A DNA stretch of 64,000 bases, taken from positions 186,001-250,000 of the forward strand of contig JAUFOQ010000017.1 in the NCBI GenBank assembly GCA_040285855.1. Direction: 5' to 3'. Source of the DNA: Eukaryota sp. GEM-RC1. Lineage: Eukaryota. The notes under the pieces are model-generated. The model saw nothing but the letters and a program-made list of their open reading frames with translations. It ran no database searches and was not told where the DNA came from. Position 1 is the stretch's first letter. Each line of letters opens with the position of its first letter. Below, one piece after another: positions 1-42,718 of the stretch. Made by a program: the position numbers and the translations under genes.

Positions 1-2330
1 TTACAATTCAATAACTGTGTAGGTGTTACAGATTGCCCACATTGGCATTTCAAATTACGTGGAAGGTTATCAGGCCAAATATATGACCGTAAACGCATGT
101 TTAATGACCAAGAGTTATCATCAAGAAGAAGACTGTAAACTTGAGGGATTTGTGTAATCAGACATGAAGCAGAGCTATTAGAAACATCCGTTTAGAAATT
201 TGCAAATGCGGGATTTTTTTCCTTGAGCGTGCCAAGCCGAACATTATAATCCAAGCTTTCAAAAATATTTGTGAGTTTCTGTCGTAATTTTTTCAGACAG
301 AACTGAAGATTAGTCAAACATCTTTCAGGTATTTCAGACACAGATTCTGGGAAACATTGGGACCAAACGGGAAAAGGTAATTTGATTAACGCTTTATTTA
401 AGTCAAATAAATATTTACATGAATTGGGGTTAATAAGTGAAATAACATTAGGAAATCGATTAACAAATTCAAAGACGAAATTTTTTCCACCGCCTAAAAA
501 AGCAGATTTGCAAAGAATTGAAGATTTGGTAAAACCAATACCACCAAAATGAGCAGAAGTAAACAAATGACTTCTAAGTAACGTTGAATCAACTTCTAAC
601 AATGAAGCTAAAAAATTAATCCTTAACTCGTTAAAAGATCTACAAAAGTTCAGAGCGATTGAAGGACCAGTAGATCTCAAAAGATGTGTGATTTTTTCGG
701 AGTAATAAATTTTTAAAATACAAAACTTGATATGTTTTTCAATATCATATGAAGAAATTGTGTTGAGTTCTGAACCAGTTTTTTCCAAACAATTAGATAA
801 TTCTTGAGAAGTTTTAGGAACATTCCCAAGACAACAACCTAGAAAACGAAAAGCGTCTTCAACATAATTGATAAATAGAATCTGAACTCCATTAATAAAT
901 AATTCTTGTGTAGATCTAACAATTAATAAACATTTGTTTGGGTTCAGAGACATAGTTGCAAAATACAAAATACAGTATTTTTTTGTATTCTGTATTTTTC
1001 TGTATTATGTATTGTATTTTTTCTGGAAAAGTGTATTATGTATTTGTATTTTTTGTATTTATTTATCAGCCCGAAAATCCCTTCAATTGACGAATATGAC
1101 TCAAATCAATGAGAGCAACACTCGACAGCGGATCTTTCTGATCAATTGTACTATTGTTTGGTACAATTGGGCCATGTATTATTTTCACTCGCAGAAATAC
1201 TAGTACAATTGTCTGCTGAATTTTCGGAACGTTCCAGTACAGTACGTCAACGGCGTGTGCTAGATGACTAAAAAGTGAAACACCGATCAAGTCAAGTAAC
1301 AAAAATTTGGAAACGCTTAATAACGTTCATTCCAAAGAATCGAAAAGTACCAAACCATGTGAAGTTGTGCAATCTAGTTTCACTACTGTCAGTCAGTGAT
1401 GAAGATCTAAATCCCTGATGAGACGAGCTACACGACACTCAGATTGATCCTGTTTTGAAGATCTACTTGTTGTCTTTGGAGACTATGATTTCGAGTTTAT
1501 ACATTTTTACCTACAATCGATATATTAAGACGATTTACAACTAATGTACAAGACAAAAAGTGTGCAAAGTCACATTGAATAACTGTATAACTCCACGACA
1601 GTTCTTTCCGTGGACCAAATGAACATTTGAACCCTCGGTGCATTTCAGAATCGAAATAACAATTGGGTTGATAAATGAAAAGAAGTTCAAGAGTGCGTAC
1701 CGAAGACGTGAACCATGATAACCCTGATGATCAATCACGTTTGCAGTCGTTGGACTCAATACACTTGGTTTAATACTTGCAATTACTAGAAAAGGAAATA
1801 CAATTAATACAGTATTCTGTATTGTATTTGTATTCTGTATCTGTATTGTATTTTTGTATTCTGTATTTTTTGTATTCTGTATTGGATTATTTTTTTTGTC
1901 CGTGTATTTTGCAACTATGTTCAGAGATAAACCTAATGTTTCATAAATATCAACTACTTCCACAGCAACCCTTTTTAACAATTCAATGGGACCAATAATA
2001 GAAATATCATTCATATAGCCAACTATCTTAAGGTCTGGGTATTTTTTTAAAATACACAAATGCGAATCATGAATAGTCAAACAAAACAAAAGAGGACCAA
2101 GAGGATCTCCTTGTTTAACACCAGACATAGACATAGATTTCAATGAATATGAATCATAAATTAAATCGCTTGGTTTACCATAAAATAAAGCAAAGTAGGA
2201 CGTCAACTCAGGAAAGTCTTTTCAATAGCAGCAAAAACAGATCTACGACTAACTGAATTAAACGCATTTTTGAAATCAAGATTAAAAATGAAATTATCAA
2301 CATGTGAATTGAAAAACAAATCTGATAGTT
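1..2330 (-). mobile_element. Degenerate non-LTR retrotransposon reverse transcriptase (RLE/CRE-R2-like), split by a DNA transposon
   Basis: RT motifs LDFKNAFNSVSR (~2240-2285), GVKQGDPLGPLLFCL, GYMNDISI (YxDD decayed) and GLSLN|PNKC, then FRFLG and GGIGF in ORF 192..968. The frame rejoins when 951..1919 and one TSD copy are removed. Confidence 0.85.
951..1919. mobile_element. Non-autonomous hAT-type element
   Basis: 17-bp perfect TIR CATAGTTGCAAAATACA; 8-bp TSD TTCAGAGA (943-950, 1920-1927); TGTATT-rich subterminal repeats. Confidence 0.92.
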
Positions 2331-9294: not shown

Positions 9295-12292
9295 ATGTCT
9301 AAACAAAAGACTGTCTCTAAACGCCTTCTTACTGTTATCGAAAAGCAGTCCTTTGAAGATAGCACTGTTCCTGGAGAGAAGAAAGACTTATCTCAACCCA
9401 TGCTGAGTGCATATCAACCCGATGCAGTTGAATCCAGTTGGTACGCTTGGTGGGAACAGCAGGGTTACTTTAAACCTTCAGACGATCCCGATAAACCTGT
9501 TTTCTCTATGGTCATTCCTCCTCCCAATGTTACCGGTTCTCTTCATCTTGGACACGCTCTTACCAACACTGTCCAAGACATCATTATACGATTCAAGCGC
9601 ATGACTGGTCACGCCGCCCTCTGGGTTCCTGGTACTGACCATGCTGGAATTGCCACTCAAACTGTTGTAGAAAGAATGATCAAGAAGAACGAGAACAAAA
9701 CACGCCATGACCTTGGCAGAGAAGCCTTTGTAGAGAAAGTTTGGGAGTGGAAGAACGACTATGGATCCCGCATCTTCAAACAACTTCGTCTCCTGGGTTC
9801 TTCTCTTGATTGGAGCAAGGAAGTATTCACCATGGACGAACCCCGTTCTCACGCTGTTCAAGAGTGTTTTGTTCGATTTGCTGAAGAAGGGCTCATCTAT
9901 CGTGATTCTAGACTTGTTAACTGGGATTGCACTCTGAGAACGGCAATCAGTGACATTGAGGTTGATTATATCACTATTGAGAAGCCTACTAAGATTGTTG
10001 TTCCTGGATATGAGAAGAAGATTGAGTTTGGAGTGTTAATTCACTTCGCATATCCTGTTGTGGACTCTAATGAAGAAGTTGTTGTTGCCACTACTCGTAT
10101 TGAGACAATGTTGGTGGACACTGCAGTAGCTGTTCATCCTAATGATGAGAGGTACAAGCATTTACATGGAAAGTCTGTCCTCCATCCATTCTCGGGTAAA
10201 CAACTGCCAATCATTTGTGATTCTGAGCTTGTCGACATGGAGTTTGGAACCGGTTGCGTTAAGATCACCCCTGCTCACGATCCTAATGATTTCGAAGTAG
10301 GAAAGAAACACGGCCTCCCAATGATCAACATGCTGAACAACGACGGCACCCTCAATGACGAATGTGGAGAGTTTAAAGGAATGAAGAGGTTCGACGCTAG
10401 GTATGCCGTAGTTGCTGCTCTTGAAGAAAAGGGTTTGTTTAGAGATAAATCGGCCAATCCAATGAGATTAGGAATCTGTTCTCGATCAAATGACGTGATT
10501 GAGCCTGTGATTAGACCCCAATGGTTCGTTGATTGTAAGGATATGGCTAATCAGGCTTTAGAAGCTGTTGCTCAAGGAGAACTTGAGGTTACTCCTGCTG
10601 AACATGTTAAGATCTGGAATCGTTGGCTTGGAAATATTCGTGATTGGTGCGTGTCACGTCAACTCTGGTGGGGTCATCGTATTCCTGCCTATTACGTCTC
10701 ACTCAAATCTGATGACGAGTTCGCTAATGAAGACCCCAAACGCTGGGTCATTGCCAAAACTCAAGAAGAAGCTGTCGTGAAAGCCAACAAGTTAGTTGTT
10801 GAACTTGGTCATTCTCTTGATGAGATCGCTTCTGTTAAACAAGATGAAGATGTACTAGACACTTGGTTCTCATCAGGTCTCTTCCCTTTCTCTGCCTTTG
10901 GATGGCCTAATCAAACTGAGGAGTTGGATAGGTTCTTTCCTACTTCGGTACTGGAAACTGGTCACGATATCCTCTTCTTTTGGGTAGCTAGGATGGTGAT
11001 GATGTCGTTGAAGTTGACTGGAAAACTTCCTTTTTCAAAGGTGTGGCTTCATGCAATGGTTAGAGATGCGCATGGAAGGAAAATGTCCAAAACTCTTGGT
11101 AATATTATCGATCCTGTTGATGTTATCTATGGAATCTCACTAGAAGATCTCCATAACAAACTCTATGAAGGCAACATTGACCCTAAAGAGATCCAAAAGG
11201 CAATCAAGGGTCAAAAAGCCGACTTCCCGACTGGCATCCCTGAGTGTGGAGCTGATGCCCTTAGATTAACTCTTTCCTCTTATATGTCTCAGGGAAGAGA
11301 TATTAACCTTGATGTTAATAGAGTAGTAACTTTTAGAAACTTTGGTAACAAGCTGTGGAACGCGACTAAGTTCGTCATGATGAATCTTAAAACTGATGAA
11401 GGCTCATTCACCTTCAATCAAGATTACATTTTTGACCCTCAAGGTCAATCACTTGCTGAGCGTTGGATTCTGTCCAAGCTTTCTTTTGCTCTAAAAGAAG
11501 TTCATGATAACATTAATAGATTTGAATTAGGACCTGCTGCTCTAGCTGCTCATAACTGGTGGTTACACGAGTTTTGTGATGTATTTATTGAGATTTCTAA
11601 GGGAAGTACTCAGCAGGACGTTCTCTTCTTTTGTTTAGAAGCTGGACTACGAATGTTACACCCCTTCATGCCTTTTATTACGGAAGAATTGTGGCAGAGA
11701 CTTCTTATGTTGACTTCTGAAGAGTTACGTCAGCAGCAACCAGAAAGTATCATGATTGCTGACTTTCCCATGCTCTTTGACTTTTTTAAATGAGGAAGTT
11801 GAAGAAAAGATGAAGATCATTGAAGAGATTGTCCATGGAGTTCGATCTCTTCGAGCTAGTTACTCTCTCCGTCCAAGTGCAAAGGCTGACGTTTACATTG
11901 TTGTGGGTGAAGGAAGTCCCGAGAAGTCAATAGAAGCTATTACTGAGGGAATTGATCCTCTTACTGTGTTGTCTAGTGCTCATAATGTTAAATGTTGTAG
12001 TGAAGATGAGGTTCCTCCAACGTGTGGTGTAAGTGTGGTATTGACAAATATTAAAATATTTGTTGATTTGAAAGGATTGATCGATGTCGATGTTGAACTT
12101 AAGAAGATCAACAAGAAACTTGGAATTGTTGAGAAATCTCTAGATTCTCTCAAAAAGAAAATGTCGATTCCTAATTATGAGACTAAAGTTCCCGAACAAG
12201 TGCGTGTTGCTAATGCCGAGAAATTCTCTAGAGTTGAGACTGAATATAAGACGTTGTTGAACTCTAAAGAAGATTTTGAAAAGATGAAGTAA
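9295..12292 (+). CDS. VARS: Valyl-tRNA synthetase; extra T near 11782-11787
   Basis: PPPNVTGSLHLGH, DHAGIATQ, DWCVSRQLWWGHRIP, KMSKT; C-terminal coiled-coil arm in 11756..12292. Confidence 0.97.
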
Positions 12293-15337: not shown

Positions 15338-18300
15338 TCAACACGTGATACGATTATTAGAGTTTCTCTCAATGAGCTTTTTTGTTTCAGAGTCAATCGA
15401 GTTATTCTCGAGATTGATCTCAATAACGTTCTCATTCAATTGTAAAGCTGCTTCAATTGCCAATGCACCCTTACCTGTAATAGAATTATGTTCAAAATTG
15501 ACTTTGGTAAGTATTGAACTAGAGTTCAACTCAAGTGAATCAAGAATCCTCCATAAATTACTGTCAGAAAGCTCACAATTACTGAAGTCAACAGAAGTCA
15601 ATGATCCCTTCTTTCTAAGGAAGTCGTACAAAGTAATGATTGCCTTGTCTGAAAAGTCACACCATTGAACATCGAGCTCCTTCCTTGAGAAACTTTTGAA
15701 AAATGATTGTAGTAAAGAAACTTCACTGGTAGACATTTGGGTGGAACTTCTAGGAGAAAGGCAAAAATTCCATTATCAATGGCTATGAAGTGGGGGGAAA
15801 TATCAATAGCAATCACTGATTTGGATGAGGCAAGTATATTGAACAAAGCAATTCGTCCCTTGAGTGAAAGATTTCCCAGTAGGAAACACTCAACACGTTT
15901 AATTTCAGTATTTTTAAATATCTGAAGGGATACCAACAAATCTGTGTTTGTAACCTCATTTTCATATACAATCAATCCATTTTCAAAATCAATCAAATGG
16001 GGATCAATTTGAACGATTGGTCTCAATTTGGCAGTGGAAACCAGTTTAAAGATGGTCAACAAAGCAGGCAGATTAAGTTGGAGACTTGCCTTTTCCAAGG
16101 AAAAGTTGTGTTCTAGAGCATTGACTATTTTTGAAAAATTGATAATGGAAAGACCAGTAAAGTCAATAGAAGTCAAAGTATTATTGACCCTGATTAAATC
16201 ATACAAACAGTCAGATGCTTCACTAGTAAAACTACAACCTCCAAAAGTCAGCTCCTTGATATTGAAACACTCCAAAAAACACTTTAAGGATGAGACTTGT
16301 TCAGCAGTAAGTTGAGGAGAATTGGTGGGGCTGGAAACAAAAAACACCAGTTTGAGTATTAATTAAATGAGGAGAAATTTTAATATTTCGAATGGTTTTT
16401 GTTGATTGACTGGAAATTAATTTAAATATTTTGACAAGTTCAGAGAGTCCAATGAAATTATTTTCGAGAATAACGTTTCTTAAACAAGAATTAACCCCAA
16501 GTGCATTAATTATTGACCAAAAATCGGTTTTAGAAATCAGACAACCAATGAAGTCAATAGAAGTCAAAGTATTATTGACCCTGATCAAATCACACAAACT
16601 AGTGATTGCTGCTGAAGAAAAACGACATCCTGTAAGAGTTAGCTCTTTGATATTAAAAGAATGCAAAAAACACTTTAGAGATGAAACTTCTTCAGCAGTA
16701 AGTTGAGGAGAATTGGTGGGACTAAAACAAAAAACACCAGTTTGAGCGTTAATTAAATGAGGAGAAATTTTAATATTTCGAAAGGTTGTTGTTGTTTGGC
16801 TGGAAATTAATTTAAATATTTTTACAAGGCCAGAGAGTCCAATAAAAAATTTTTCGAGAATAACGTTTCTTAAACAAGAATTAAACCCAAGTGCATTAAT
16901 TATTGACCAAAAATCGGTTTCAGATATCAGACAACCTCTGAAGTCAATAGAAGTCAAAGTATTATTGACCCTGATTAAATCACATATACTACTGATTGCT
17001 TCACTAGTAAAACTACATTCTTCAAGAGTGAGTTTTTGATATTAAAAGAATCGAAAAAACACTTTAAGGATGAAATTTCTTCAGCAGTAATTTGGGGAGA
17101 ATTGGTGGGTCTAAAACAAAAAACACATGTTTGAGTATTAATTAAATGAGGAGAAATGTCAACACTAATCACTGAATTGTTAATGGAAAGAATTTCAAAT
17201 AGAGCAAAAAGATCTTCTAAATTTGGATATTTCAATCTACGACACTCAACATGTTTGATAGGAACTTCTGATTTTAAACCCTCTAAAAGTGAGATTAAAT
17301 CAGAATAATCAACCTCATTATTATAACGAATAGAACCATCATCAAAATTGATTGAATGATGAGAAATTTTAATATTTCGAATGGTTTTTGTTGATTGACT
17401 GGAAATTAATTTAAACATTTTGACAAGGTCAGATAGTTCAACGATAATATTTACGAGCATAAACTTTCTTAAACAAGAATTAAGCGCAAGTGCATAAATT
17501 ATTGACCAAAAATCGGTTTTAGAAAACAGACAACCACTGAAGTCAATAGAAGTCAAAGTATTATTGACTCTGATCAAATCATACAAATCACTGATTGCTT
17601 CACTAGTAAAACTACATCTTGTAAGAGTGAGCTTTTTGATATTAAAACACTGCAAAAAACACTTTAAGGATGAAACTTCTTCAGCAGTAATTTGAGGAGA
17701 ATTGACGGGATTAAAACAAAAAACACCTGTTTTAGTATTAATTAAATGAGGAAAAATTTTAACAGTAATGACTGAGTTGTTAATGGAAAGAATTTCAAAT
17801 AGAGCAAAAAGATCTTCTAAATTTGGATATTTTAATCTACGACACTCAACATGTTTGATAGGAACATCTGATTTTAAAGCCTCTACAAGTGAGATTAAAT
17901 CAGAATAATCAACCTCGTGATTATAATGAATATAACCATCATCAAAATTGATTGAATGAGGATCAACAATAATCATCGATGGTAATTTCCCAGCTAATAT
18001 CAGTTCAAATATAGTCAGAAGACTTTTGAGCGTAACGATTGTGTTACTGAGATTGATTTTTCTTAAGTTGGTACTGAATTGAAGTTCGGTGATAAGGTTG
18101 GAAAAGTCTTGGTTGACAGACGGTCGACAGTAACTGAAGTCAATAGAAGTCAAAGTATTATTGACCCTGATTAAATCATACAAACAGTCAGATGCTTCAC
18201 TAGTAAAACTACATCCTTTAAGTGTAAGTTTTTGATATTAAAAGAATCGAAAAAACACTTTAAGGATGAGACTTGCTCAGCAGTAAGTTGAGGAGAATTG

Positions 18301-20415
18301 GTGGGACTAAAACAAAAAACACATGTTTGAGTATTAATTAAATGAGGAGAAATGTCAAGACTAATCACTGAGTTGTTAATGGAAAGAATTTCAAATAAAG
18401 CAAAAAGATCCTCTAAGTTTGGATATTTTAATCCACGACATTCAACATGTTTGATAGGAACTTCTGATTTTAAAGCCTTTAAAAGTGAGATTAAATCAGA
18501 AGAATGAACCTCATGATTATAATGAATATAACCGTCATCAAAATTGACAGAATGAGGATCAATAATAATGATCGATGGTAATTTCCCACCTAATATCAGT
18601 TCAAATATAGTCAGAAGACTTTTGAGCGTAACGATTGTATTACTGAGATTGATTTTTCTTAAGCTAGTATTGAATTGAAGTGTGGTGATAAGGTTGGAAA
18701 AGTCTTGGTTGACAGATTGTCGACAGTAACTGAAGTCAATGGAAGTCAAAGTATTATTGACCCTGATTAAATCACACATACTACTGATTGCTTCACTAGT
18801 AAAACTACATCTATTAAGAGTAAGTTCTTTGATACTAAAACACTCCAAAAAGGACTTTATGGATGAAACTTCATTAGCAGTAATTTGAGGAGAATTGATG
18901 GGGCTGAAACAGAAAACACAACCATCGATGTCAATTAAATGAAAATCATTTCTGTTAGACAAGCTGTTTTCAATATTTAAACTAGTTTTAGAAATGTCTA
19001 AGCTCCAATTTAATCGCTTAGACTCAGTTGTCTTTAAGACTTCATACAGTTTCATCAACGTAACTAAATCGAAATTCCGACAACGAACACAGACTTTCTT
19101 TAATCGAGAATTAAATTGAACGCCAACAAGAAGATTTCGAAACACTTGAGAATTAAAATTAAGGTCTAGATTTAAAACAATCAGACCAGTATTGTGCCGT
19201 AACATTAATTCAATTGATTGGGCATCTAGATTATTTTGATTTGGATTATGAACAATTAACTCTAATAAAGAAGTATTTGACTCCAGTGATTTAAAAATTG
19301 GTGATAATGAATCATTAAAAGGGTGCCTGCTATTGGGAATAGAAATCTCAAGTTTTTTTAACGATGTATTGTTATCTAAAATACTTCCAAGAAGATCATA
19401 GTTAAATACATTAAGGAAAGTAACTTCTTGAATACAAGAATTATCTTTTAGAGCTTCAAGAACTGTAGAATCAAGAGGAAGAAAACTAGGAAACACTAGA
19501 CTTTTAAGAGTAGAAGAAGATAATAAAGGAAGAAGAACTATAAATTCGATGTGAACGATGTTAGATAAGTCAAGAACTTGAATCCCAGTACTTTTAGAGA
19601 GAGAATTGAAAAAAGAAGATGTAGGAATGAATGATGAATGTCGATTAGACAGAGAAACCTTTTTCAACGTGCTATTTTTTAAAAACACGTCTTCAAGGTT
19701 AGAGCTGGATAAAGATTCCTGTAAACAAACATCTAGTTCTTTAATACTAGAATTATCTTCAAGAAACTTACAAAATAAGGTAACCAAATTATCAGACATA
19801 CTGTTGAAATGGAGTCTTTGAAGATTTGGTAAAAAAATAGGGCGATAATGGATTGATGACGTTTACACTGGTCATATTCAAATCAAGTCCCAATCGAGTA
19901 ATCAAATGTCTGATCTGTTGAACGTGATTAGCATCAAAATAACCATCACAGATCAAATGCACAGATCGTATTTCAGCTCTAAAGAAAGAAGCCAAAGAAG
20001 AAAGAAGGAAGAAGTCCCTTGAAACAATTGGAAACGTGGTGGTTTCAAAGAAATGTTTACTTCCCAGTACAGCACTTGTAAAGAACCGTGAACCCAAGGA
20101 GCAGGCTTTAACAAAGAAGGTGAGAAGGTTTTTTCGGAAAAAACGCAGACGACGGGGATTGTCTAGGTTATCAAGGGAAGAGTTTAAGAGACATCTGATC
20201 CAATGAGAGTCAATGAGTACCCACAAAGACTGAGGAAAGAAGATGAAAGAACTAGAAGGAGGAGGATCATCAATGCAGGATAGGGAGTCGGAAAGAGAAG
20301 ACAGAATCAGTGGAGGTGAGGGTGAGCAGACTCTTGAAGGGGGATAATCCTGACAGGACTCATTGCTGCTAAGTAGGAACGAACGATTTTTCTTCAATGA
20401 CGGGAGTCTAGACAT
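15338..20415 (-). CDS. Giant RNI-type leucine-rich-repeat protein with tandemly duplicated modules; several frameshifts
   Basis: Six consecutive same-strand ORFs with a recurring IKELTLxxCSFTSEA..LxDLIRVNNTLTSIDF unit and a terminal NSITGKGALAI/NSIDSE cap. Confidence 0.85.
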
Positions 20416-22632: not shown

Positions 22633-23996
22633 TCAACGTTTCTTAGATCTTCCTATCATCATTAATCCATCCTTGATTTCATCATGATCCGATCTCTGGT
22701 CTAAACTTGTTGACATTTCTAAATGAGCCATTAAATCCCTGTTTTCTGCCTTCAGTCTGGTTATAACATCTTTGAGCTCATTGGTTTTGTTCACATGTGA
22801 TGCCATCTTCTTGTTTTGGCGATCTACCAAAGTCTTGTTCAGTTTCTCCATTGCCAATGCCTTCCGTCTTTGTGTCGCAACTTCCTTCTCCAAATCAACA
22901 GCCTTTTGTCCAAGTCTATTATTTTCAGTCTCTAATTCCTGAACTTTTGACTGCAATGAACACATTTGTTTCTCCAACTCAGAAATCCGATCACACGAAT
23001 CCTCAGTTACTCTTGTTATCTCACCCTCATAGTACGCCCTTTGAGTTTCCAATTGGTCCTGCAACAGATCAGAGTACTCTTGAAACATTGACTCAATTTT
23101 GACATCGGAGCTCTTGGGTTCATCAAGGCTTATCACCTTACCTGCTTCATTTGTAATTAATCGATGTACATAGGCATCATCTAAATACGACCACACTCTT
23201 TGGCTGGTGATCTCTAAGCTAAAAGCATGACCTGTTGATTCGAAGTGTTGTAGAGCACATCTGTTAGAGTGCCTTCCGCAGCCCAAGTGTCCACATATAT
23301 AAAGTAAGAACTTATGAATCTACATACTAGACAACTCCATATATCACCATCAAGGGCACATTGACTGCAGCACAAGTGTTTATTGTTTATAGTGTACCGA
23401 CAGACAGCACATTTAGAATCTCCGAGATTGTAGAGGCAGTCCACGTGATATAGATGGTCACAAAAGATTGAAATGGTGGAAGTAATAGATTCATTGATGT
23501 GTATACGCTCAAGGCAACAAGGACAAGTGGGTAATTCAACGAGATCTGAATTCCTGTCCACGAGAAGAGTCGTTTGTACATCAGAAGAAGGTACGAATTC
23601 AACAGAGGAGACTAGGAAGCAACGGACAGGTTCTGGTTGTTCCAGAGAGATAGTAGGCAAAGCTGAACCATGACTGACATCAACAAACTCATTAGCGGCC
23701 ATACATGTAGAGAATCTCAAGAGAGCCAAATAACGCTCTTGAGCATCATGGGTTAACACACGGATATGTTTGATGTCGGTAAGTGCATTTTGAAGGAAAG
23801 CAAGAAGATCAATTACAGAAAAGGAGTATGGTAGACCTAGAAGGCAGACAAGTTGTGATGCTGGTGGTTTGGAACAGGTACGTTCAGTAAGAAGACTGAT
23901 TTTTCCATGTGATTTAAGGACCTTTGGGTTTCCAGAAGAAGCTTCCACTATTTCTTCCTGTAGTTCATCTTCAGCAACCTTGAGATGAAACGCCAT
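22633..23996 (-). CDS. BRAP: BRCA1-associated protein (BRAP2/IMP/Etp1): BRAP2 domain, RING, ZnF-UBP, coiled coil; intron 23299..23327
   Basis: ELPTCPCCLERI, CDHLYHVDCL, CAVCRY, WSCL|ICGHLGCGR, HAFSLEITSQRVWSYLDDAYVHRL, QLETQRAYYE. Confidence 0.92.
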
Positions 23997-24348
23997 TAGA
24001 CAAGTGACAAAATAGAACACGTGTTTTGAGGAAAATACAAATCTACAAATACAAATACGTCCCAGTTACTACTTACAGACCAGAGACCATCAGTTGCAGA
24101 GTTCCAATGATGTACAGAGCCTAAAACACCGAAACATAACAGAAGGATGATGAGAATCTTCCTTCCCATTCTTCCCTGTCACCCCCACTCTTCTCAAATC
24201 TCTTCAATCTATCCACTCAACAGATGAAGTCCACAAATGGACGACCATTGCTCTCTCTGAAAAAAACCTCTCTGTTATCGCGTTGTTTTACAACGATGTA
24301 CATCAATGGATTTCTACTTATTTATTCAAACTAAACTCAATAGATTGA

Positions 24349-27300
24349 CTATTTTTTAGTCTTTTTTTGTATAGTTGTAGGTGCAGACATCTTCTTAGGT
24401 CTTCTCAGCTTCTCAGGTCGTTGGTTTCCTTCGATGTGGGATTTGGTAATGTGCCAAATGTTCAACGCACTATTGGTGTCTCTGTTCCAAAAAACACCAC
24501 ACTCCTTGTTCTGACAATGAAGCAATCCATGGCAAGGAACCATTTTTGGAGAAGTTTTAATTCTGGTTTCCTCTTGAATTGTTTGCGACAGCTTTGCTTG
24601 AATTTCATCCTTTTCTTCTTCACTTAATGCAATGAGATTTTTTGCATTCATACGAATCTTATTTTTGAGCAATTTTTGTTTCCGCTTAAGTCTCTTCAAC
24701 TCATTCGGGTCTTTGACTTTTATGTCACTAACAGTGTCACCATCCCTGTTAGCAAACACACAAGCAGCACATTTTTTACTGGTACGGAATTCGTCCACCA
24801 AGTAAACATAAAATCCAGCTCTTCTCAAAATATTTCGTAAAAAAGCACCTCGAACTGTAGGTGCTTTTCCTTTCGATGCCTCTTTGCATCCCAATTTCCA
24901 AATCCAATGACGATATCACTGGTATTCTTGTGAGTATCGTCACATAACTCTGGATTTGAGACGATCAATCCAAGCAGCCTCAGATTTTTGATTGTTCATG
25001 TAGGCCAAAAGTTTGTTTCTTCGAAACAATTTAGAGTGATATACAGGGAACAGAAGTTCGTCGTGTTCAAGTTTGGCTTTGCAGTAAGATTGCAATTCGT
25101 TTAGAGTCAAACACTTAGCTGAAAATTGTGATAAGTACAAGATTAGATCTTCGACCGAGAAAGAGCTGACATTTCCAATGTCTGGGACAAATTGAAATGT
25201 TTTTATCAATATATCCACTTCATCAATTGTTTGCCACAGTGTTGTGGTGTTGGAGTTTCGATCCAAAACGAACGTAAATTGGTCTTTGAACTCTTGTGCA
25301 GACTTTTTCAAACTATCAGTCCTTCTTTCAAATTTTCGGCGCCCAGCAGTGTAAACATCAGTCACCCATTTGTTTTTTTGATTTCTTAAATGATGACTTT
25401 TACCAGTTTCATGAACTTCAGACTCATCAAAATTTGTTTCTTCTCTAATTCTGGACCGTTGATCTTCGGCATGCATTTTGGATTTTTCTGTTCTTATATC
25501 TTGCAATTTTAAAAGTTCTTTCTTTTTACTGTGAAGAGCTGGCCTTTTAGTTTTTAACTGATCCTTCAAGACATATGGGATCTGAGGTCCCGTACGTTCT
25601 GCGATCAAATACGCTAGATCGTATTCATTTGGATCTATACCAGCTATTTTTTTGTTTTTCAAATTCTCAAGCTCTAATTTAGACAACTCATCAATGTATT
25701 TTTTCTTCGAATTGCCTGGCAACGCCATCACAATATTTCAGGTCGTTTCTCTTGAGTTGGACGGAAACTCCAAAACCATCGGTTAAAATACCACAATCGA
25801 AGAAATAGTTGTTTGAATTTGATTGTATAGCCGTATGATTGTCATTAATAACGCGACTCCATTTTGCCGTTCTAGAATCAACATCATCAGAAACCACTTC
25901 ATCACCAATCACTTCATCAGAAACCACTTTATCACCAATCACTTCATCAGAAACCACTTTATCACCAAAGAGACCATAGTAGTTACCAATGACACCTAGA
26001 GTGGATGTATCGATTCGGATGTATCCCGGTATTAACTCTGTTCTTTGAGGGAATACGTTATATATGAACAGGGGCATCGGAACTTCTTCTTTTCAATAAT
26101 AGCTGAAGCAATACATGCATTTGAAATTTTTGAAATATCACACATCAGTATGTATGATCTTGAAATGTATTTTTGCCATTTTGACTTCAGTTCGGCAAGA
26201 GCATGTTGTTTTGGAAAGTCTAACATACTGAGCATGGAATTAATAGTATCAAATTCAAAGGGATAGATGGTATCATCCAACAGTTCATTTTCAAAAGCCA
26301 AACACTTGATTGACTTAAATCTTGTCATCAATTCATGTTTGATGAAGTGTTTTGCTTCATCAGTGACAAATTTGGAAAAACGAGTCCACAGTTCAGCAGT
26401 TACTTCTTCTCCATTTAGAACAAATTCAACCAGTTGTTGAATATATTTAGGGAAGCTTAATTCTTTCCATAAATCAATTCTTTTTTCTTGTGACATACTA
26501 AGCAAACTAATTAAACAGCTCCATTTTGTTGCAGATTTAGATCTCAGTAACTCATCGTCTTGAATTTCAGTGATGGTATCAGTATCCTTTAAGTGTTGGA
26601 TAGCAAGAGGTTTAGAAACAAACGAGTGGATTAAACGAAAGACATGAATTAAAGCATCATACGAAAGTAAGTCTATGGAGATTTGTTTAATTGATTCTTC
26701 AAATATTGTAAACTCCATTTTTTTGGCTGGATGAGTTTCAGGAGCATCAATGAATTCCTTGGTTCTAAGTGCAATATTTAGCCAGCGATTAAAGTGATCA
26801 GGAAAATGTGTTTGAATATTATTCATATATGAGGTAAATATTTCTGTGATCGAGTACTCGAGGATTCTAGAGCTTCTTTCGTATTTAGGACGAGTACCCG
26901 CATTTGGAAGGTTTGGAAAAATATTCAAGTGAAAGACATTGGCCATTTCAGAACGAAGACTCAATGTTTCTGCTCTTCTAGTCTTAAATGATACAATTTT
27001 TTGAAAGTCAGGGACTCCGTCTTCTGAAGAAAATCTCTCAAATTGTTTCTCAAACATAGCTGTGACCCAGATTGCCGCACGCACAACTTCCTCTGTGAAC
27101 TTGACTTCAATCGCCTTTTCACAATTTTCAAATTTTGTAACAAAAAGAATTTCAGCAAGAGATATGTTCTTCGAACAATTAAATCAACATCGAACACAAT
27201 CGTCTCGATTTCCATTTTGAGTTTGGTGGGATGTACAAAATTTTCCAAGCCGCATTTTATAATCTTGTAGTGATTGAGTTCTAAAAGGTGTTGAATTTTG

Positions 27301-28291
27301 GGATGCAAGAAATATCGGAAGAGTTCAGAGGTCATACTGTTTTCATGGCAACACTGAAGAATCAGTTGCTGGTCGTGGGAAGATTCAATTATTACCTGAT
27401 TGTAGTTTAGCCTGAGAAGCTGGGTGACTAAGATTTCTAAGCTATTCCTACCACCACAATTGTAAAATTTGGAAGCAACGCTGTGTGTATCAAATATGTT
27501 AAAAACTTCTTCACATTTTGATAGTTGTTGAAAAATAAAGAACGGGATATCAGTAAACCGTTGGTTGATATAGGAAGAGAAATTGAAATTTGGTTGATAA
27601 TGGAGAAACCGCTTCATCAAAGAAGGCATGTCAAAAGTCAAAGCATTGTGCCCAACAAAAAAGATAGGCAGATCCTCTCCTAAATAAGACCAAAATGCAT
27701 TTAGCATATCAAGCTCACCTTCAAATTGAATAGGAGTAATGGTGTCAAGTCTCTCAACAGAATAAGTAGTGAGAAGGCAAGAATCAGAAGGTTCAAATGT
27801 ATTTTGGTTTAAACAAAATGTATGAATGGCAATAATGGTTATTTCATCTTTTTCAAAAACTGGTTCAGGAGAACGCTCGAAATGTTTCTTCTTCAATTCT
27901 GCAACTTCAGCAGCATCCAGAAATTGCTCGGCTTCAGAGATGAGCTGTTGCACACAAGGAGCTTCCGAAATTTGATGGTCAATCGAAGATTTTTCTTTGG
28001 AATTAAGTCGTTTTTTGCCTAAGTTTTTCTTCATTGCTTTGCTTAAGATATCAGCAGCCCATGATAGATTCTGATTTAATTCAACATTTGGATTGGTCTT
28101 TATGGAAAGAAACCAGATTTTTGTGATTTCTCATAATGAGGAAGTTCTAAGGACTTTGACAGTTTAAAAGGTGGAGTCAGACATGATGACTGTTTACTCC
28201 CACGTTGAGTTGCTTGTTCTAGTGACATCATACAATGAACAAAATGGTATTTATTTAATAATGACTTAGTAAATGGCTTAGTAGATCTCAT
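24349..28291 (-). CDS. Fanzor1-type (TnpB-family) RNA-guided nuclease with N-terminal PolB-exonuclease-like domain, about 1,300 aa once ~6 single-base frameshifts are corrected
   Basis: YKIIKC..RTYLLLK, YMNNIQTHF, NVFPQRTELIPGYIRIDT, ILTDGFGVSV, RuvC-I IAGIDPN (~25635), LFRRNKLLAYMNNQKSE, IVIGFGNW, RuvC-II LVDEFRTSKKCAAC (~24790), HGLLHCQNKEC and RuvC-III WNRDTNSALNI (~24480). N-terminal part has ELDMLNAF...FVGHNALTFDMPSLMKR. Confidence 0.88.
25870..25968. repeat. In-frame 30-bp tandem repeat inside the Fanzor gene
   Basis: GDKVVSDEVI-type unit, about three copies. Confidence 0.9.
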
Positions 28292-28376
28292 GTTAGTTCT
28301 CAACTACTCACTATAATTGAATTGCCAACAGAACGAGTTTTTTCAGTGAACGCTACACGTTACAAAATTGAATCTA

Positions 28377-28478
28377 TGCACACAGATAAGAAAAAGTGCA
28401 CACAGATAACAAAATTTTGCACACAGATAACAAGTGCACACATATAGCAAAATTTTACACACGTATAACATTACCCTA
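28377..28478. repeat. Array of TGCACACAGATAA motifs upstream of the Fanzor gene (candidate transposon-end subterminal repeats)
   Basis: Perfect copies at 28377, 28397 and 28418; degenerate copies at 28435 and ~28456; array ends in TTACCCTA. Confidence 0.8.
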
Positions 28479-29078
28479 TTATTTATTAATTGGTAACAAA
28501 TCTGCTTTAGATCACCTTTAAACAGGACTTTAAAAGAATACCATGTTTACATGGTTTGAGAAAAGATCGATAAGACTTGTAAAGAATTCTACAGTATTGA
28601 AAATGTAGAGAAGTTGGTCCTTTAAATAAAGAATCTCTATCAGAGTGTAACAAGAAACCCTAAAGAAACACCATTAGGAAAGTCCTAAGATATCTACTAA
28701 CTAACATTAAACAGAAGTCAATGAAGACACCTTTGCTTTCTTTCCTTTACATAAGGAATGAAGCGTGAAGATTTTGTGCTGATTGGTTGGGTGGGTGGGC
28801 AGTTTTTTATGCAAACAGCAAATATGTTATCTTTTGTACTAACTGAAGGCAAGCAGAGGCTGATACGGGAACCTCACGCTGAAAAAGGGAAACCCCCAAG
28901 TGAGATCTTGCCGAATCACCCATTATGTTTATGTTGTATGCGAGGAGTAGAAGGAAGTAGCTTTATATAGCTGTTTAGGATGGATAGAAACATCCACTTT
29001 TTGAGTTATCACAGTACCTAAAATATATAGTATACAGAGGCTTCAACGAAAGCCTAGAACACAAGTATCGATACATAC

Positions 29079-29606
29079 TTAGGGTTTGTAGCCTTGAATA
29101 AGAAGAAAAAAGGAAGAAAACATACAATCTTTGACACACATAATGGGCAGACAACGAGCTCTTGATGGATCATCATTGTGTACAACCAACACCTCAACAT
29201 CATCATTGTTACAACGAGGAAAACAAGCCCCATCAGCTGTGGCATAAAGTCCCCCTTCGGCTTTACTCTTATCATCACAATCGTCGATAGCATCAGGTAT
29301 CCGAGAAACCATACCAACCAAGTAAACAGTGGTGCTGAGTAGAACACAAATGATCAATAGAAATGTTGCTAAATTGGCCAACTGCGGGTTGTAATTGTTT
29401 CGAAGTAGTGAAACTGTATAAAAGAAGCCAAACGTGGCTACAACCAGAGCAAAAACGAAGGCGTAATGATGCCATTTCAGAGTTAATATGGAGTTGATGA
29501 AACCCAGGCCTATAGTGACCGAGAAGAAAACAAAAAGAAGAACTAGAACTAGATTCCTATGTTGTGGCTTTTTTGGCAGTAAAGGAAGTTGAGGATCAGA
29601 AAACAT
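29079..29606 (-). CDS. Three-TM membrane protein with Cys-rich C-terminal domain, copy 1; probable intron 29093..29125
   Basis: Paralogue of 63064..63588 (PLLPK, GGL.AT.DGACFPRC, LVVHNDDP..RCLPI.C). Splicing gives ...CYKP* in both copies. Confidence 0.75.
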   Translation of the reverse strand: MFSDPQLPLLPKKPQHRNLVLVLLFVFFSVTIGLGFINSILTLKWHHYAFVFALVVATFGFFYTVSLLRNNYNPQLANLATFLLIICVLLSTTVYLVGMVSRIPDAIDDCDDKSKAEGGLYATADGACFPRCNNDDVEVLVVHNDDPSRARCLPIMCVKDCMFSSFFLLIQGYKP

Positions 29607-30297
29607 CTGCTATAAAGTAGTGATGAAGAAGAAATATTGACTACTACACATGCAGTAGGACAAAAACGTCTACCCACCCTAACCTTCACCACTATTTCAT
29701 AACAATGACATCATTGAACACTAGTCTACATGATTTTAAGCATACCTGGAAAAACAAGGGGTTGAACAAAATGCAAGTACAGAAAATACAAAACAACAAG
29801 TAATGTATAATACCAGTATTTTCAGTAGTGAATAAAGACAACAGTGATGTTCAATACTATACTAATAGGTTTCGTTTTCTTATAACAGTTAATTTAAGCT
29901 ATAAAACATTCAGTAAATATACTGTTTTCTGTTTTCATTTTCAGCAACCAAATACTACGGAGTTCATTCATTTTAGTATAGTAGATTAGATGTAGCAAAA
30001 GTCCATTAACTGTTTCAGATATTGATATCCGAAGATGGAATTCAATTCAACACAAATGCAATTTCCAGACGTAGTATCTTACGACTCACAGTAGTGACAA
30101 TAGTAATACATGTGTAAACTGCCGTTTGATCAATATGAGCAGCGAAACCATACAGATCGACATTGATTTAAAAGAAATACTACGAGTAGTGGGTGTTGAT
30201 AATAATACACACTAAATTACACTCCGGGTCAGTGCTAGAGGATTGGTTTGACTCCAGCATGAGTAGGACACGTGACTTCAATTCAACGGACTTCAAT

Positions 30298-31038
30298 CAT
30301 AGTTCGAAATGCGTACGGCACGTTCGGTAGCGTACTCCATACGCGCACGTGCGGAATACGTGCGGCTTCTTTTACCGTATTCCAACGTATTCTTCTTTTC
30401 ATATTCTTTTCTGTTAACCAGCACCTATTATATATTATACAATACTATTTATTGATGAAACAAAAACTACAACTTTTCATCAAGGTAGGGATTCAACAAT
30501 ATCTTCTGGTTCACCTTCAAGAATGTCACGGTCCTTATCTTGAGGTTCAGCAATACACTGATCAATTACCCAGGGGATCACAAAAACTTTTTTTCAGAGA
30601 TTTTAATAATCTGGTGTTTCCGTCTTTGATTGGCGTAAAGAAATACCAAATCGTGCAGGAGTGAAGCTTCCATCATATTGCGTTTCTTGGTTTTAATGAT
30701 GGAGTGCACAATCCAATTTCTCTCGACAGCTGGTTGACTTACAATTTTGATTGGTACTGAACGAAGAATACCATCTCGTGAGCCATTTTTTCCCACAAAG
30801 ATTTGGGTGAACATTTCTCCATGTCTTGCCATGATGGTTGTTTTTTGAAAAAGCTACGTTTGTTCTCGTAATCATAAAACTCATTTAAAGCATCAGTGTT
30901 ATGGACCATATGATAAAAGAAATGCGACACGTGTTTATGTAAGAATACGGTATTCTCGCACGTGTTCTGCCGTACTCCATACGCGCACGTGCGGAATACG
31001 TGCGGCAACTGAATAACACGTTCGCATTTCGAACTATG
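30298..31038. mobile_element. Internally deleted hAT element
   Basis: TIR CATAGTTCGAAATGCG; perfect 8-bp TSD ACTTCAAT (30290-30297, 31039-31046); minus-strand hAT dimerisation remnant VSQPAVERNW..IKTKKRN..LHDLVFLYAN. Confidence 0.92.
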
Positions 31039-31102
31039 ACTTCAATTGACCTTCCTATTCCAAGCTATTCCACATCTTCACTTCCATTTTCAGAACTCGT
31101 TT

Positions 31103-31621
31103 ATGAAACTCGTTTTAGTTATCACATTGTTTTTTGCTCTGGCCTTCGCCGGTTGCCGATGCCCCGGCTCTTGTGGATCTGGATATCGGGGTTCTATTGT
31201 TGATTGCTATTGTTGGTGTCAGCGAACTGCTAACTCCTTGAAAGCATCTTCTGATGCCAAATGTTCTCATTTCCCTAGTGGTTCATACAGCTCTGGTGGA
31301 TGCTCTCTTTGTGCTTCTAACATTAACAGTCTCACCGGCGAAACTTCTGCTGCTGAAGTCTTTGAAAAGAGCCTTTCGGATGCCTTAATTGGAGTCGAAA
31401 CCAATAGCGGAATGATCTTCCCTGTTCGTCGTTGCAGATGTCATGATGGAACCTGTGACTGGGGATATAGCGGCACTTCCAGTCAATGCTCCGCTTGGGC
31501 TAGATCTCAGTCCTCTCGCTTCATCAACGGACAATATACGGTCTCTTTCTTCCCTCGTGGAATGTACTCTTCAGGAGGATGTAGTGTTTGTGGACAGACT
31601 GATCCATGTAAATCCTTTTAA
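31103..31621 (+). CDS. Secreted two-domain cysteine-rich protein, copy 2 (intact, 172 aa)
   Basis: Signal peptide MKLVLVITLFFALAFA; two CRC.G.C..GY.G...C..W...FP.G.YSSGGCS.C domains. Confidence 0.9.
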   Translation: MKLVLVITLFFALAFAGCRCPGSCGSGYRGSIVDCYCWCQRTANSLKASSDAKCSHFPSGSYSSGGCSLCASNINSLTGETSAAEVFEKSLSDALIGVETNSGMIFPVRRCRCHDGTCDWGYSGTSSQCSAWARSQSSRFINGQYTVSFFPRGMYSSGGCSVCGQTDPCKSF

Positions 31622-35857: not shown

Positions 35858-36389
35858 ATGATGAAAGTCCTCTTCACTATCACTTTGCTCATTGCACTAA
35901 CCTTTGCAGGCTGTCGCTGTCCTGGTACCTGTAATAGCTACTCTAGACCTGCCCCTGAATGTTTCTGCTGGTGCCAACGAACAGCTAATACCTTAAGAGC
36001 CTCCCCCTGATGCCAGGTGTACGTATTTTCCCAGTGGTTCCTTCAGCTCTGGTGGATGCTCTCTATGTGCTTCTAACATTAACAGCCTCGCCAGCGAAAC
36101 TTCTGCAATCGAAATCTTCGAAAAGAGTCTGTCGGAAGCCATTATGGGAATCGAAACCAACAGTGGTGTGGTCTTCCCTCTTCGCCGTTGTAAATGTCAT
36201 GATGGAACTTGCAAATGGGGTTTCACTGGTACGTACTCTCGCTGTGTTTCGTGGGCTAAAAGCCAGTCCAATCGCTTTTTGGATGGTCAGTATACCGTCT
36301 CCTACTTCCCTCGTGGTACATATTCTTCAGGAGGATGTAGCGTTTGTGGTGAAACAGATCCATGTAGGGCTTTTAAGAGTTATCAATAA
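35858..36389 (+). CDS. Secreted two-domain cysteine-rich protein, copy 3 (extra C near 36003-36007)
   Basis: MMKVLFTITLLIALTFAGCRCPGTC...FPSGSFSSGGCSLCASNINSL...FPLRRCKCHDGTC...ETDPC. Confidence 0.85.
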
Positions 36390-40587: not shown

Positions 40588-42718
40588 TAGGGTTGGGCAA
40601 AACTCCACTCGAGTTCTATGAGTAGAATCCAAACTCCACTTCACTCCACTTCACTCCAAATTTCTACGAGTTGGAGTCGAGTTGGAGTTCTGTCAAAATT
40701 TTACGAGTAAGTCGAGTTGGAGTGAAACTTGTGATTTAATCAGTATTTTTGAGTAAGCTGTACATCGTGTACAATAGTTTTACCGCTGTAGAGTAACACC
40801 TATATGCTTTGTCACTAGAAACAAGGTAAACAAATAAAGGAAAGTCTAACAAGTTGTTTATCTTATTTATTAAACTAAGGCTATGAAGGGACGTTTAGAT
40901 TCATTGCATACCATGATTTAAGACAAAGAAGTTCTTCCAAAACTTCATCAGAGAGACGATTTCTTGTTTTGCTGAGCGTACGTCCACTTGCAGAAAAACA
41001 TCGTTCTGATGCAACTGATGATACCTGTACAGCAAGAAACTGACGAGCTATGGAAGAAAGAACAGGGTACTTATCTGTTCGGTGTTTCCAAAAATTTTAA
41101 AGGATTAGAAGTAAGGGGTTCCAATTAGGACTGTGCAGGTTTGGGTTTCAAAAAGTTTCAAACCCCAACCTGGTTTAGGTTTGGTTTGGTTTTCCAAAAA
41201 TGGGTTCAGGTTCCGCTAGGTCTTTAAGTTTTAGGTTCAGGTTCCGCTAGGTTTTTAAGATTTAGGTTTAGGTTCAGCTAGGTTTTGTAAAAAAAGGTTT
41301 AGGTTCAAACCTAGTAAACCCGATATGTACTATGAATTAAAAATACACTGTAGTTGAGTGGTACACTGTCAAAATAAAGTTGTTCTTACGGTAGTACTAG
41401 ATAAGCTTTATTATTAATGCTCGAATATCACAAACAACTACTAGTGGTGCTACTTTTCTTTTTGAGAAATTACCCTAAAACAAAGTTTTTGAAACCTGAG
41501 TTCCAAAAACAAAGTTTCTCAAACCTTTTTTCCCAAAAACAAAGTTTTTTTGGAGGATTGCCCCAAAACAAAGTTTCTCAAACCTCTACAAACTTTGTAG
41601 TGTTTCTGTATCGGCTATAAAGTTCAAAATGCAACAGTCTCAGGTTTGAAAAACTTTGTTTTTGGGCGAAGACTCTTTCTTTTCAAAAAATGTCTCCAAT
41701 CCTTAAGACTGACAATTGCTTGGATACTTTCATCGGACAGAGAAGCTCTATATTCTGTAACTGTGTGTCCAGCAGAAGAAAAAACCTGTTCGCAACAAAC
41801 AGAAGTTGCTTGGATACCGAGAAAATCTTTGGCCAAGCTGGCCAAAATAGGATAACGGTTGGAATTTGCGTTCCATTATGTGAGTGGATCTTTAGATTGA
41901 GACAAAATACTTTCACCCAAATAGTCCATCAACTAGGAATGTGCAGGTTTGGGTTTCAAAATAGTTTCAAACCCCAAACCTGATTTAGGTTTGGTTTGGT
42001 TTTATTAAAAACGGTTTAGGTTTGGTTTTATTAAAAACGGTTTAGGTTCAGCTAGGTTTAGTAAAAAAAGGTTTGGTTTGAAACCTAAACCCGAACCTGC
42101 ACAGTCCTAGTTCCAATGGACCTAGTTCAAACGAGTCAAGTTCGCCAATCGGCTCCTCATGTTGATCAACCAGATGTGAAACAGCCAAACGGAGAGAGCA
42201 TTCGGGTACGGGTTCAATATCAACGACTTCACCTTCAACGATTGCAGGTTCTGCAGGTTCTGCAGGTTGGACTTCTACTGATTCAATATCAAGAGAGGGT
42301 TGATGTGAAATAAAATATTCTTTGAACTGCTCTCTGAAGTTTTCAGTCTTCAACTTCAATGGCATCAATCTCGTCTTAAAACGAGGATCAAGAAGCATAT
42401 CAACATATGTTGTGAAGTTATAGATGTGATCATGCTTATCCTTCATCGATGAAATCATCCGCAACACCCATGGTCTGTGTCGGTCGCTGGAGGAAGGCGG
42501 TCGATATTGAACAAGAAGATTCCTTTCTTGTTTATAAGCATTCGGAGTAAAACTAAAATTCAGAAGTGGAGTGAAGTGTTCAAGTGACTTGAGTTTGGAG
42601 TGAAGTGAAGTTGGAGTGAAGTTCACTTGTAAAATTTATTGTTTGGAGTGAAGTCGAGTTGGAGTTCTAAAATTTCTACGAGTGGAGTAAAGTCGAGGTT
42701 GGAGTTTGCCCATCCCTT
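40588..42718 (-). mobile_element. Deleted hAT element (outer), interrupted by a second hAT element
   Basis: Ends TAGGGTTGGGCAAAACTCC / GGAGTTTGCCATCCCTT; GAGT/ACTC subterminal repeats; LLDPRFK and KYPVLSSIARQFLAVQVSSVASERCFS transposase remnants on either side of the insert. Confidence 0.85.
41126..42109 (-). mobile_element. Deleted hAT element (inner, nested)
   Basis: TIR TAGGACTGTGCAGGTT; perfect TSD GTTCCAAT (41118-41125, 42110-42117); GGTTT repeats; LAKDFLGIQATSVCCEQVFSSAG dimerisation domain. Confidence 0.93.

Follow-up and report, generated by a model that had tools for sequence, protein, structure and literature searches.

Fanzor1 proteins are eukaryotic RNA-guided nucleases, and four studies served as reference for them here: Bao and Jurka 2013 (PMC3627910), Saito 2023 (PMC10432273), Yoon 2023 (PMC10711439) and Xu 2024 (PMC11423790). 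In PMC3627910 the family motif is given as D-X(125,275)-[TS][TS]-X-X-C4 finger-X(5,50)-RD, and PMC10711439 names TDG in the WED domain and DPG at RuvC-I as markers. Published sizes are mostly 600-700 amino acids (aa; PMC11423790), with values up to about 800 aa in PMC10711439. Here a gene of a protist, Eukaryota sp. GEM-RC1, is described, in which a Fanzor1 nuclease is preceded by a 3'-5' exonuclease domain of the type found in family-B DNA polymerases (PolB). It lies in a stretch of 64,000 nucleotides (nt) of contig JAUFOQ010000017.1 (positions 186,001-250,000), which is called the window, and all coordinates are positions in this window.

The whole account proposed here is that a Fanzor1 was fused in frame to a likely dead PolB proofreading domain, which would act as a helper that does not cut. 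It is held with slightly better than even confidence.

An exonuclease domain fused in frame to a Fanzor1 nuclease

The gene is on the minus strand and is composed of seven frame segments separated by six breaks, at about 28113, 27134, 26085, 25738, 24945 and 24870, and its stop codon is at 24349. The chosen frame segments were joined from the ATG at 28231, with an X at each break. This X read-through comprises 1,296 residues, 320 for a leader and the exonuclease domain and 976 for the Fanzor part, and the chosen segments contain no stops. The open reading frame (ORF) with the exonuclease domain extends from stop to stop over 26961-28130 (first ATG at 28034) and bridges the exonuclease and the Fanzor N-terminus uninterrupted, as the original prediction had stated; all motifs quoted there were also found at the minus-strand positions given. 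The leader is separated from this ORF by one frameshift, and its frame is open to a further ATG at 28291; a sibling copy, P0002, is annotated from MMSLE, which equals the window ATG 28231 and not 28291. The protein-database gene model of the locus, P0001, was rejected as a guide to the true protein: it bridges the second break with an intron that deletes the conserved RRTYLLLK, and its end is out of frame.

The predicted PolB or DnaQ-type identity of the N-terminal domain was borne out by several searches. ORF 26961-28130 matches the Pfam family DNA_pol_B_exo1 (PF03104) with an E-value of 2e-6 and 27.8 bits, the cut-off being 23. The top clusters of the ESM Atlas were all PF03104, with scores of 0.90-0.91 and shared-feature counts of 132-144, which is low by the tool's own standard. 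With a three-row profile against the PDB all matches were family-B polymerases (best E 3e-5). In alignment A4, DEITII through FDMPSLMKR can be aligned with viral PolB cores, and D93, E137, G158, N160, F164, D165 and R172 are invariant in its 28 rows, 25 of which are viral PolB cores. Because these seven positions are invariant, the exonuclease fold core appears to be kept. The IFDT and NSLEILVTQLL motifs of the domain are likewise present on the minus strand. After ExoI the domain has a helical Lys-rich insertion of about 75 aa, which resembles a nuclear localization signal by eye, and a long insertion at this place is common to the 79 giant-virus PolBs that were extracted. The domain scores equally well with Pol delta, T4-type enzymes and giant-virus PolBs, and therefore the donor group cannot be assigned to the last of these. 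The GC content at third codon positions is 0.335 in the exonuclease part, inside the range of the Fanzor segments (0.29-0.35).

An AlphaFold2 model built from the three-row alignment had a predicted local distance difference test (pLDDT) score of 45.8 and was too poor to use. With this model Foldseek retrieved nothing at E 0.001 and VIA-align retrieved generic helical matches only (Z <8), both results being uninformative given the quality of the model. The structural comparison suggested in the original prediction thus did not confirm an RNase H-like fold, which is predicted from sequence.

Within ORF 26961-28130 the exonuclease domain runs without a stop into the first approximately 45 Fanzor1 residues (Fanzor positions 7-55). 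The N-terminal ends of 48 distinct Fanzor1 proteins were combined into a profile, and among 1,879 six-frame segments of the window its best match was to residues 286-333 of this ORF. Taken alone, this match is weak (9.4 bits, E 0.12); it was reached by none of 1,000 shuffles of the ORF. In the X read-through, the positions 10-200 of a full-length Fanzor profile align continuously over the next break (E 3e-17). The second copy, P0002, lies on a different contig of the same genome and has the same in-frame junction, with 94% identity; the two copies differ at 17 of 330 residues, and the genome thus contains at least two copies of the gene. The exonuclease-Fanzor fusion is real. Its independence of frameshift correction, as claimed in the original prediction, holds from the exonuclease domain to the first 45 Fanzor residues, while the length of about 1,300 aa requires six read-throughs. 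It was also considered that an unrelated exonuclease gene had been joined to the Fanzor gene during assembly, a worry that the original prediction had raised itself. The assembly is indeed prone to indels, but a chimeric join is extremely unlikely because the same junction is present at two loci on different contigs.

For the Fanzor half, the best 80 of 312 relatives on viral contigs were kept, and all counts of viral loci refer to those 80. A complete ORF of 641-705 aa was present in 55 of the 80, and these 55 proteins begin about 10-40 residues before the motif equivalent to HYKIIKC. The full-length profile was built from them together with P0005 (56 proteins, 655 positions). It maps in order onto six window segments, the nine best domain matches in the window are all at this locus, and in the X read-through positions 10-638 of 655 are covered with E 3e-71, including WED, REC and RuvC homology. 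The C-terminal piece is 30-32% identical to giant-virus Fanzor1s and matched only PpFz1 (E 5e-5) and SpuFz1 (E 0.007) in the PDB; the middle piece had no relevant match there. The Fanzor part also matches Pfam PF07282. The D-E-D triad of RuvC, the TDG and the C4 finger are intact (Table 1), the triad aligns with PpFz1 and SpuFz1, and the RuvC-II Glu is placed seven residues before the first Cys, i.e., at the Ealt position. RuvC-I reads DPN, so that DP of the DPG marker is kept and the G is not. The elements of the motif in PMC3627910 are all present in order; the spacing from D to TS is 284, slightly above the published range because of an insertion. The part has about 976 aa, compared to 641-705 aa in the 55 complete giant-virus relatives, and REC, the stretch that follows RuvC-I and the zinc-finger region each contain insertions, which together with a short tandem repeat account for the extra approximately 320 residues. 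By all these sequence features the Fanzor half is a bona fide Fanzor1, in agreement with the original prediction.

An alternative is that there are two products instead of one fusion, in which case an ordinary-size Fanzor would be made from the internal ATG at 27335 and the exonuclease frame would be a remnant that merely lacks a stop. This ATG is 21 codons before HYKIIK and thus at the distance at which viral Fanzor1s start. It lies, however, inside the ExoIII-like helix, and the upstream frame is open for 280 codons in two copies that are 5% apart, so that this alternative is considered quite improbable.

A search of 1.84 billion cluster representatives yielded four proteins. Three are from the source genome, i.e., P0001, P0002 and P0003, a fragment of 100 aa with 49% identity. 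The only non-self relative is P0004 (RCL1_007893) from another protist genome, with 28% identity; no Fanzor N-terminus was detected in its annotated 330 aa. P0004 has a PolB-type exonuclease domain without a polymerase domain, and may represent the captured gene in stand-alone form or else a gene model that is truncated. No fusion outside the source genome was present among the 1.84 billion representatives, and 2,100 longer candidates contained only the gene model of the locus itself. Such searches depend on shared words or on annotated proteins, so that a gene with frameshifts can easily escape them. With the REC piece as query no relatives were found, and the ESM Atlas gave only generic helical clusters; the C-terminus as query retrieved one ordinary Fanzor1. 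Nothing was found in viral scans with window pieces, in a metagenome scan with the exonuclease alignment or by phage tblastn, and in the three loci obtained from a second metagenome scan no exonuclease-like ORF was seen by eye. In the 80 viral loci no exonuclease was matched within the Fanzor ORF or ahead of it, and the sole match among them is a separate PolB gene on the opposite strand of locus L005. The fusion is lineage-restricted and has been seen in one genome so far.

Table 1. Coordinates of the fusion gene, its motifs and its flanking features in the window.
Feature	Position	Strand	Evidence or remark
N-terminal leader (MMSLEQ...)	28115..28231	-	72% identity to P0002 residues 1-43, in frame in P0002
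PolB-type 3'-5' exonuclease domain, predicted inactive	27273..28121	-	PF03104, ESM Atlas, PDB profile matches, alignment A4, masked motif scan
Best ExoI match, KIWFLSIKT	28121-28095	-	masked motif scan
Exonuclease core, DEITII (DEITIIAI)	27848	-
ExoII, GHNALTFD	27653-27630	-	N-x3-F-D kept
ExoIII-like QCCHEN	27356-27339	-	motif scan
Fanzor1 nuclease part, about 976 aa, six frame segments	24349..27272	-	Fanzor profile, PDB matches, Pfam PF07282
WED/REC start, HYKIIKC	27272	-	followed by RRTYLLLK
Frameshift common to both copies, A-run (CAAAATTTG)	27130..27140	-	P0002 same exit point
In-frame 15/30-nt tandem repeat (DKVVSDEVIG units), WED region	25876..25968	-
TDG (WED)	25783	-
RuvC-I D, in GIDP (25641)	25635	-	D868 of X read-through
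RuvC-II E, in VDEFRTS (24795)	24792	-	E1150 of X read-through
C4 zinc finger, CAAC and CQNKEC	24771 and 24516	-
RuvC-III D, in WNRD	24480	-	D1254 of X read-through
Candidate omegaRNA scaffold, long basal stem, between Fanzor stop and BRAP2-like gene	24092..24322	-
Short direct repeats, four copies (TGCACACAGATAA), possibly subterminal or belonging to a promoter	28377..28470	.	all 4 window matches here

The exonuclease active site

The ExoI motif of proofreading exonucleases contains two acidic residues, DxE, which is present in 79 of the 79 viral PolBs extracted, by selection. No DxE was found anywhere upstream of the DEITII core in either copy. When the acidic columns were masked in a motif scan, the best ExoI match in both copies was KIWFLSIKT, in which F-L-S-I-K-T puts Ser and Lys at the positions of the D and the E. 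The same stretch forms the sole strand within residues 1-130 of the AlphaFold2 model, the poor quality of which (pLDDT 45.8) has been described above. Using the intact ExoI of P0004 as probe, KIWFLSIKT scored 11.0 and the runner-up 4.0, and the runner-up is also devoid of the Glu. ExoII is kept. The Y-x3-D pattern of ExoIII is not present: in the best register of the motif scan it is replaced by Q-C-C-H-E, with loss of the Tyr and a change of Asp to Glu, and in the adjacent register, C-C-H-E-N, the Tyr is lost as well.

Family-B polymerases are routinely deprived of proofreading by replacing both acids of ExoI. Because DxE is missing from both copies and S and K occupy the acidic positions, the exonuclease is probably dead, i.e., its proofreading chemistry is likely lost and the domain is likely unable to hydrolyse DNA. 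The original prediction had proposed that it could process cut DNA ends, and this function is not supported by the residues found. A rearranged but active site might nevertheless trim the 3' ends of Fanzor cuts and thereby bias repair, as engineered Cas9-exonuclease fusions do. The ExoII Asp is indeed kept, the best ExoIII register has a Glu for the Asp, the relative P0004 has an intact ExoI (LFLDFET), and other acids may act as substitutes. Given the absence of DxE upstream of the core, the effect that loss of both acids has on family-B enzymes and the missing ExoIII Tyr in both registers, an active exonuclease is regarded as very improbable.

Frameshifts and the coding state of the gene

All six breaks are in or beside A-runs of three to five. 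The chosen frames contain no stops in 1,290 codons, while roughly two to three would be expected at a neutral divergence of 1-1.5% (P 0.14-0.05, rough); this divergence is itself a rough inference from the 17 differences in 330 residues. The assembly was inspected for comparable breaks in host genes, at hand-picked junctions and not in a sample. The essential ValRS gene (valyl-tRNA synthetase) is shifted in a T-run at 11780-11795 (+), an ion channel gene in an A-run at 55840-55850 (+) and a VPS9 gene in or near a homopolymer run at 59650-59700 (+), in all three cases without an intron. As these genes are shifted near homopolymers, the assembly must carry indel errors in host genes. Taken together, the lack of in-frame stops and the shift in ValRS indicate that the six frameshifts are probably assembly indels, and they are taken as mostly such errors in the proposed account.

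One break is common to both copies: the Fanzor frame ends in P0002 exactly where it ends in the window copy, and the out-of-frame tail that follows is the same. A leucine-rich repeat (LRR)-like gene of the window, at 15598-19862 (-), consists of units of about 390/600 nt and had no Pfam match at E 0.001. At its seven homologous sites, a pure A-run occurs at two, both of which are shifted, and an interrupted run at five, all in frame. According to this pattern, two copies could share a false break.

Alternatively, the shared break could be a programmed -1 frameshift at A_AAU_UUG, yielding a short exonuclease-only product and a rarer full fusion, and thereby limiting the dose of the nuclease. 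The heptamer is in register at 27135, the shift is present in both copies, and the unshifted frame meets no stop for 57 codons (P about 0.03 per site). However, the loss of one A from AAA-AAA-TTT makes the heptamer automatically, ten such heptamers occur in about 1,300 codons, and a final G is disfavoured in slippery heptamers. Furthermore, no stimulatory downstream structure was found (best z -1.8 in 15 windows), and the other five breaks would still require a separate explanation. A programmed shift is therefore judged to be highly improbable. Stop-triggered +1 frameshifting throughout the genome, as in ciliates, was tried as an explanation and rejected, as the breaks of the ion channel and VPS9 genes are far from stops. 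Two +1 breaks are directly at a TGA, AAA TGA in ValRS (11790, +) and ATG TGA in the Fanzor gene (24940, -), probably by chance, since other +1 breaks are not placed in this way.

The main rival is decay. A PolB-like piece would have been captured by chance, the chimera copied a few times, and the copies would now be pseudogenes in which the exonuclease never had a role. This reading was given no weight in the original prediction. It is consistent with the six breaks, one of them shared, with the 17 differences between the copies, with the fragment P0003, with the lack of fusion relatives outside the source genome (four matches in total) and with the loss of catalytic residues. On the other hand, there are no in-frame stops, the RuvC triad and the zinc finger are intact, the breaks in or beside A-runs are of the same kind as in host genes, and the core fold residues of the exonuclease are invariant. 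Overall, decay with a functionless passenger is thought to be unlikely, albeit a serious contender.

Several points weigh against the account of a Fanzor1 with a dead helper domain. The break density, six in 3.9 kb, is several times that of single-copy host genes, with one break each in the approximately 3 kb of ValRS and the approximately 4 kb of the ion channel; poor polishing of a multi-copy sequence would explain it. One break is common to both copies, and a shared shift could also be inherited, as the two LRR units with a shift are close duplicates of each other. The 17 differences in 330 residues are no demonstration of purifying selection, and P0002 is seen in its N-terminal half only. 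The placement of ExoI and ExoIII comes from motif scans without a structure, whole-domain MAFFT and hhalign failed to place them, the masked scan misplaced P0004, its positive control, by two residues, and an acid is retained in the best register of ExoIII (D to E). Searches of the flanks established neither a guide RNA nor element ends.

Flanking DNA, possible mode of action and comparison with known systems

The window is eukaryotic; it contains ValRS, BRAP2, SBDS, ion-channel and kinase genes as well as a 31-nt GT-AG intron. A BRAP2-like host gene is located 350 bases downstream of the fusion gene, and a small membrane-protein ORF is upstream. Between the Fanzor stop and the BRAP2-like gene, a candidate omegaRNA scaffold was noted; it had z -3.4 and was matched by 1 of 200 shuffles, in a window that had been selected because of its stem, and equally low values were obtained for 4 of 40 background windows. 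It had no match in Rfam. Four direct repeats are found 150-240 bases upstream of the start (Table 1). No transposase was recognised by eye among the ORFs of 28150-31000, of which the Pfam scan covered a 176-aa ORF only. The best inverted match between the flanks was at chance level (82 of 300 shuffles), and a candidate pair of terminal inverted repeats, 24254-24276 with 28327-28349, was rejected on that ground.

Some further observations were made in the window. In the BRAP2-like gene an apparent 29-nt intron, 23298-23326 (-), starts with GT and ends with AT instead of AG, which is either a miscall or a non-canonical site. Remnants of other mobile elements are a weak reverse transcriptase (E 3e-4) at 1544-2221 (-) and a weak hAT-like RNase H (E 9e-4) at 42051-42635 (-), both below the Pfam cut-off. 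Two related small cysteine-rich and probably secreted proteins, at 31040-31621 (+) and 35997-36389 (-), share the repeated unit CxCHDGTCxWG / YSSGGCSxC; the former had no Pfam match at E 0.001.

By homology to other Fanzors, the protein of about 1,300 aa would use its RuvC site to cleave DNA, directed by a predicted guide RNA. If it works as inferred for other Fanzors, this RNA would derive from the 3' end of the unit together with adjoining DNA and would direct the break to the empty site. Repair of the break from the occupied chromatid would then restore the element, as in restorative homing, described in PMC13565253. Since no transposase was recognised nearby, the element would need an enzyme provided in trans in order to move. 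The Lys-rich insertion may supply a nuclear import signal, and Fanzors often have such signals at the N-terminus according to PMC10530073. The weakest step concerns the presumably dead domain, which may keep its pocket for single-stranded 3' ends and grip the displaced or cut strand.

In PolB enzymes the Asn and the Phe of ExoII touch the substrate. Holding of DNA ends without cutting is a possible role for the domain. The stronger version, a live Fanzor1 of about 1,300 aa, approximately twice the usual size, in which the proofreading domain clamps single-stranded 3' ends, retains those that the nuclease has just cut and guides repair so that the element is copied back, is regarded as distinctly unlikely at present.

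The exonuclease-Fanzor1 fusion is apparently not described in the Fanzor literature, as far as keywords reveal, which agrees with the original prediction; this search did not extend to the tables in the supplements of Saito 2023, Yoon 2023 and Xu 2024. The word "exonuclease" does not occur in PMC3627910, PMC10432273, PMC10711439, PMC11423790, PMC13565253 and PMC10691335, nor in PMC10530073 and two of its supplements. The fusion is also absent from the Fanzor passages of bioRxiv 10.64898/2026.06.03.729735.

If an entire enzyme fold of foreign origin is attached to the N-terminus, RNA-guided nucleases of eukaryotes would prove to be modular and to accept cargo at this end, a property of use for the design of editors. 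In described Fanzor1s the growth is due to inserted segments within REC, RuvC and the zinc finger. The fusion also offers a direct route to asking how a Fanzor break enters homologous repair in eukaryotic cells, and a 3'-end clamp, if true, would mean that a eukaryotic RNA-guided nuclease has a natural equivalent of the nuclease-accessory fusions made by engineering. The weight of these considerations is limited because the fusion is known from a single genome, its added domain is likely inactive and decay of the copies may be under way.

Compared with known systems, the gene resembles SpuFz1, GtFz1 and PpFz1 in the order and spacing of the WED domain with TDG, the RuvC-I D, the RuvC-II E by the zinc finger, the C4 finger and the RD. 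It differs from known Fanzor1s by the length of the Fanzor part, about 976 aa, by DPN in place of DPG and by the N-terminal extension of 320 aa with a predicted exonuclease fold; a transposase and a terminal repeat were not identified at the locus. With the family-B proofreading (DEDDy) domains of Pol delta, T4/RB69 and giant-virus PolB the domain shares a core that aligns from P-x-x-E-x-D-x-I to G-x-N-x-x-x-F-D. In contrast to them, it has no polymerase domain, it has lost the ExoI DxE and the ExoIII Tyr, and it is fused to a Fanzor. P0004 has the same domain layout with a Lys-rich insertion, but has kept D-F-E in ExoI.

Accessory exonucleases have been reported for other mobile elements: DEDDh exonucleases accompany P and piggyBac transposons (cited in PMC3627910), and a DnaQ-like domain is present in polyproteins of long terminal repeat (LTR) retrotransposons (PMC6338049). 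Like these, the gene described here places a predicted DnaQ-fold domain on a putative mobile element. Unlike these, which are not joined to an RNA-guided nuclease, its domain is PolB-derived, predicted to be inactive and fused to a Fanzor1.

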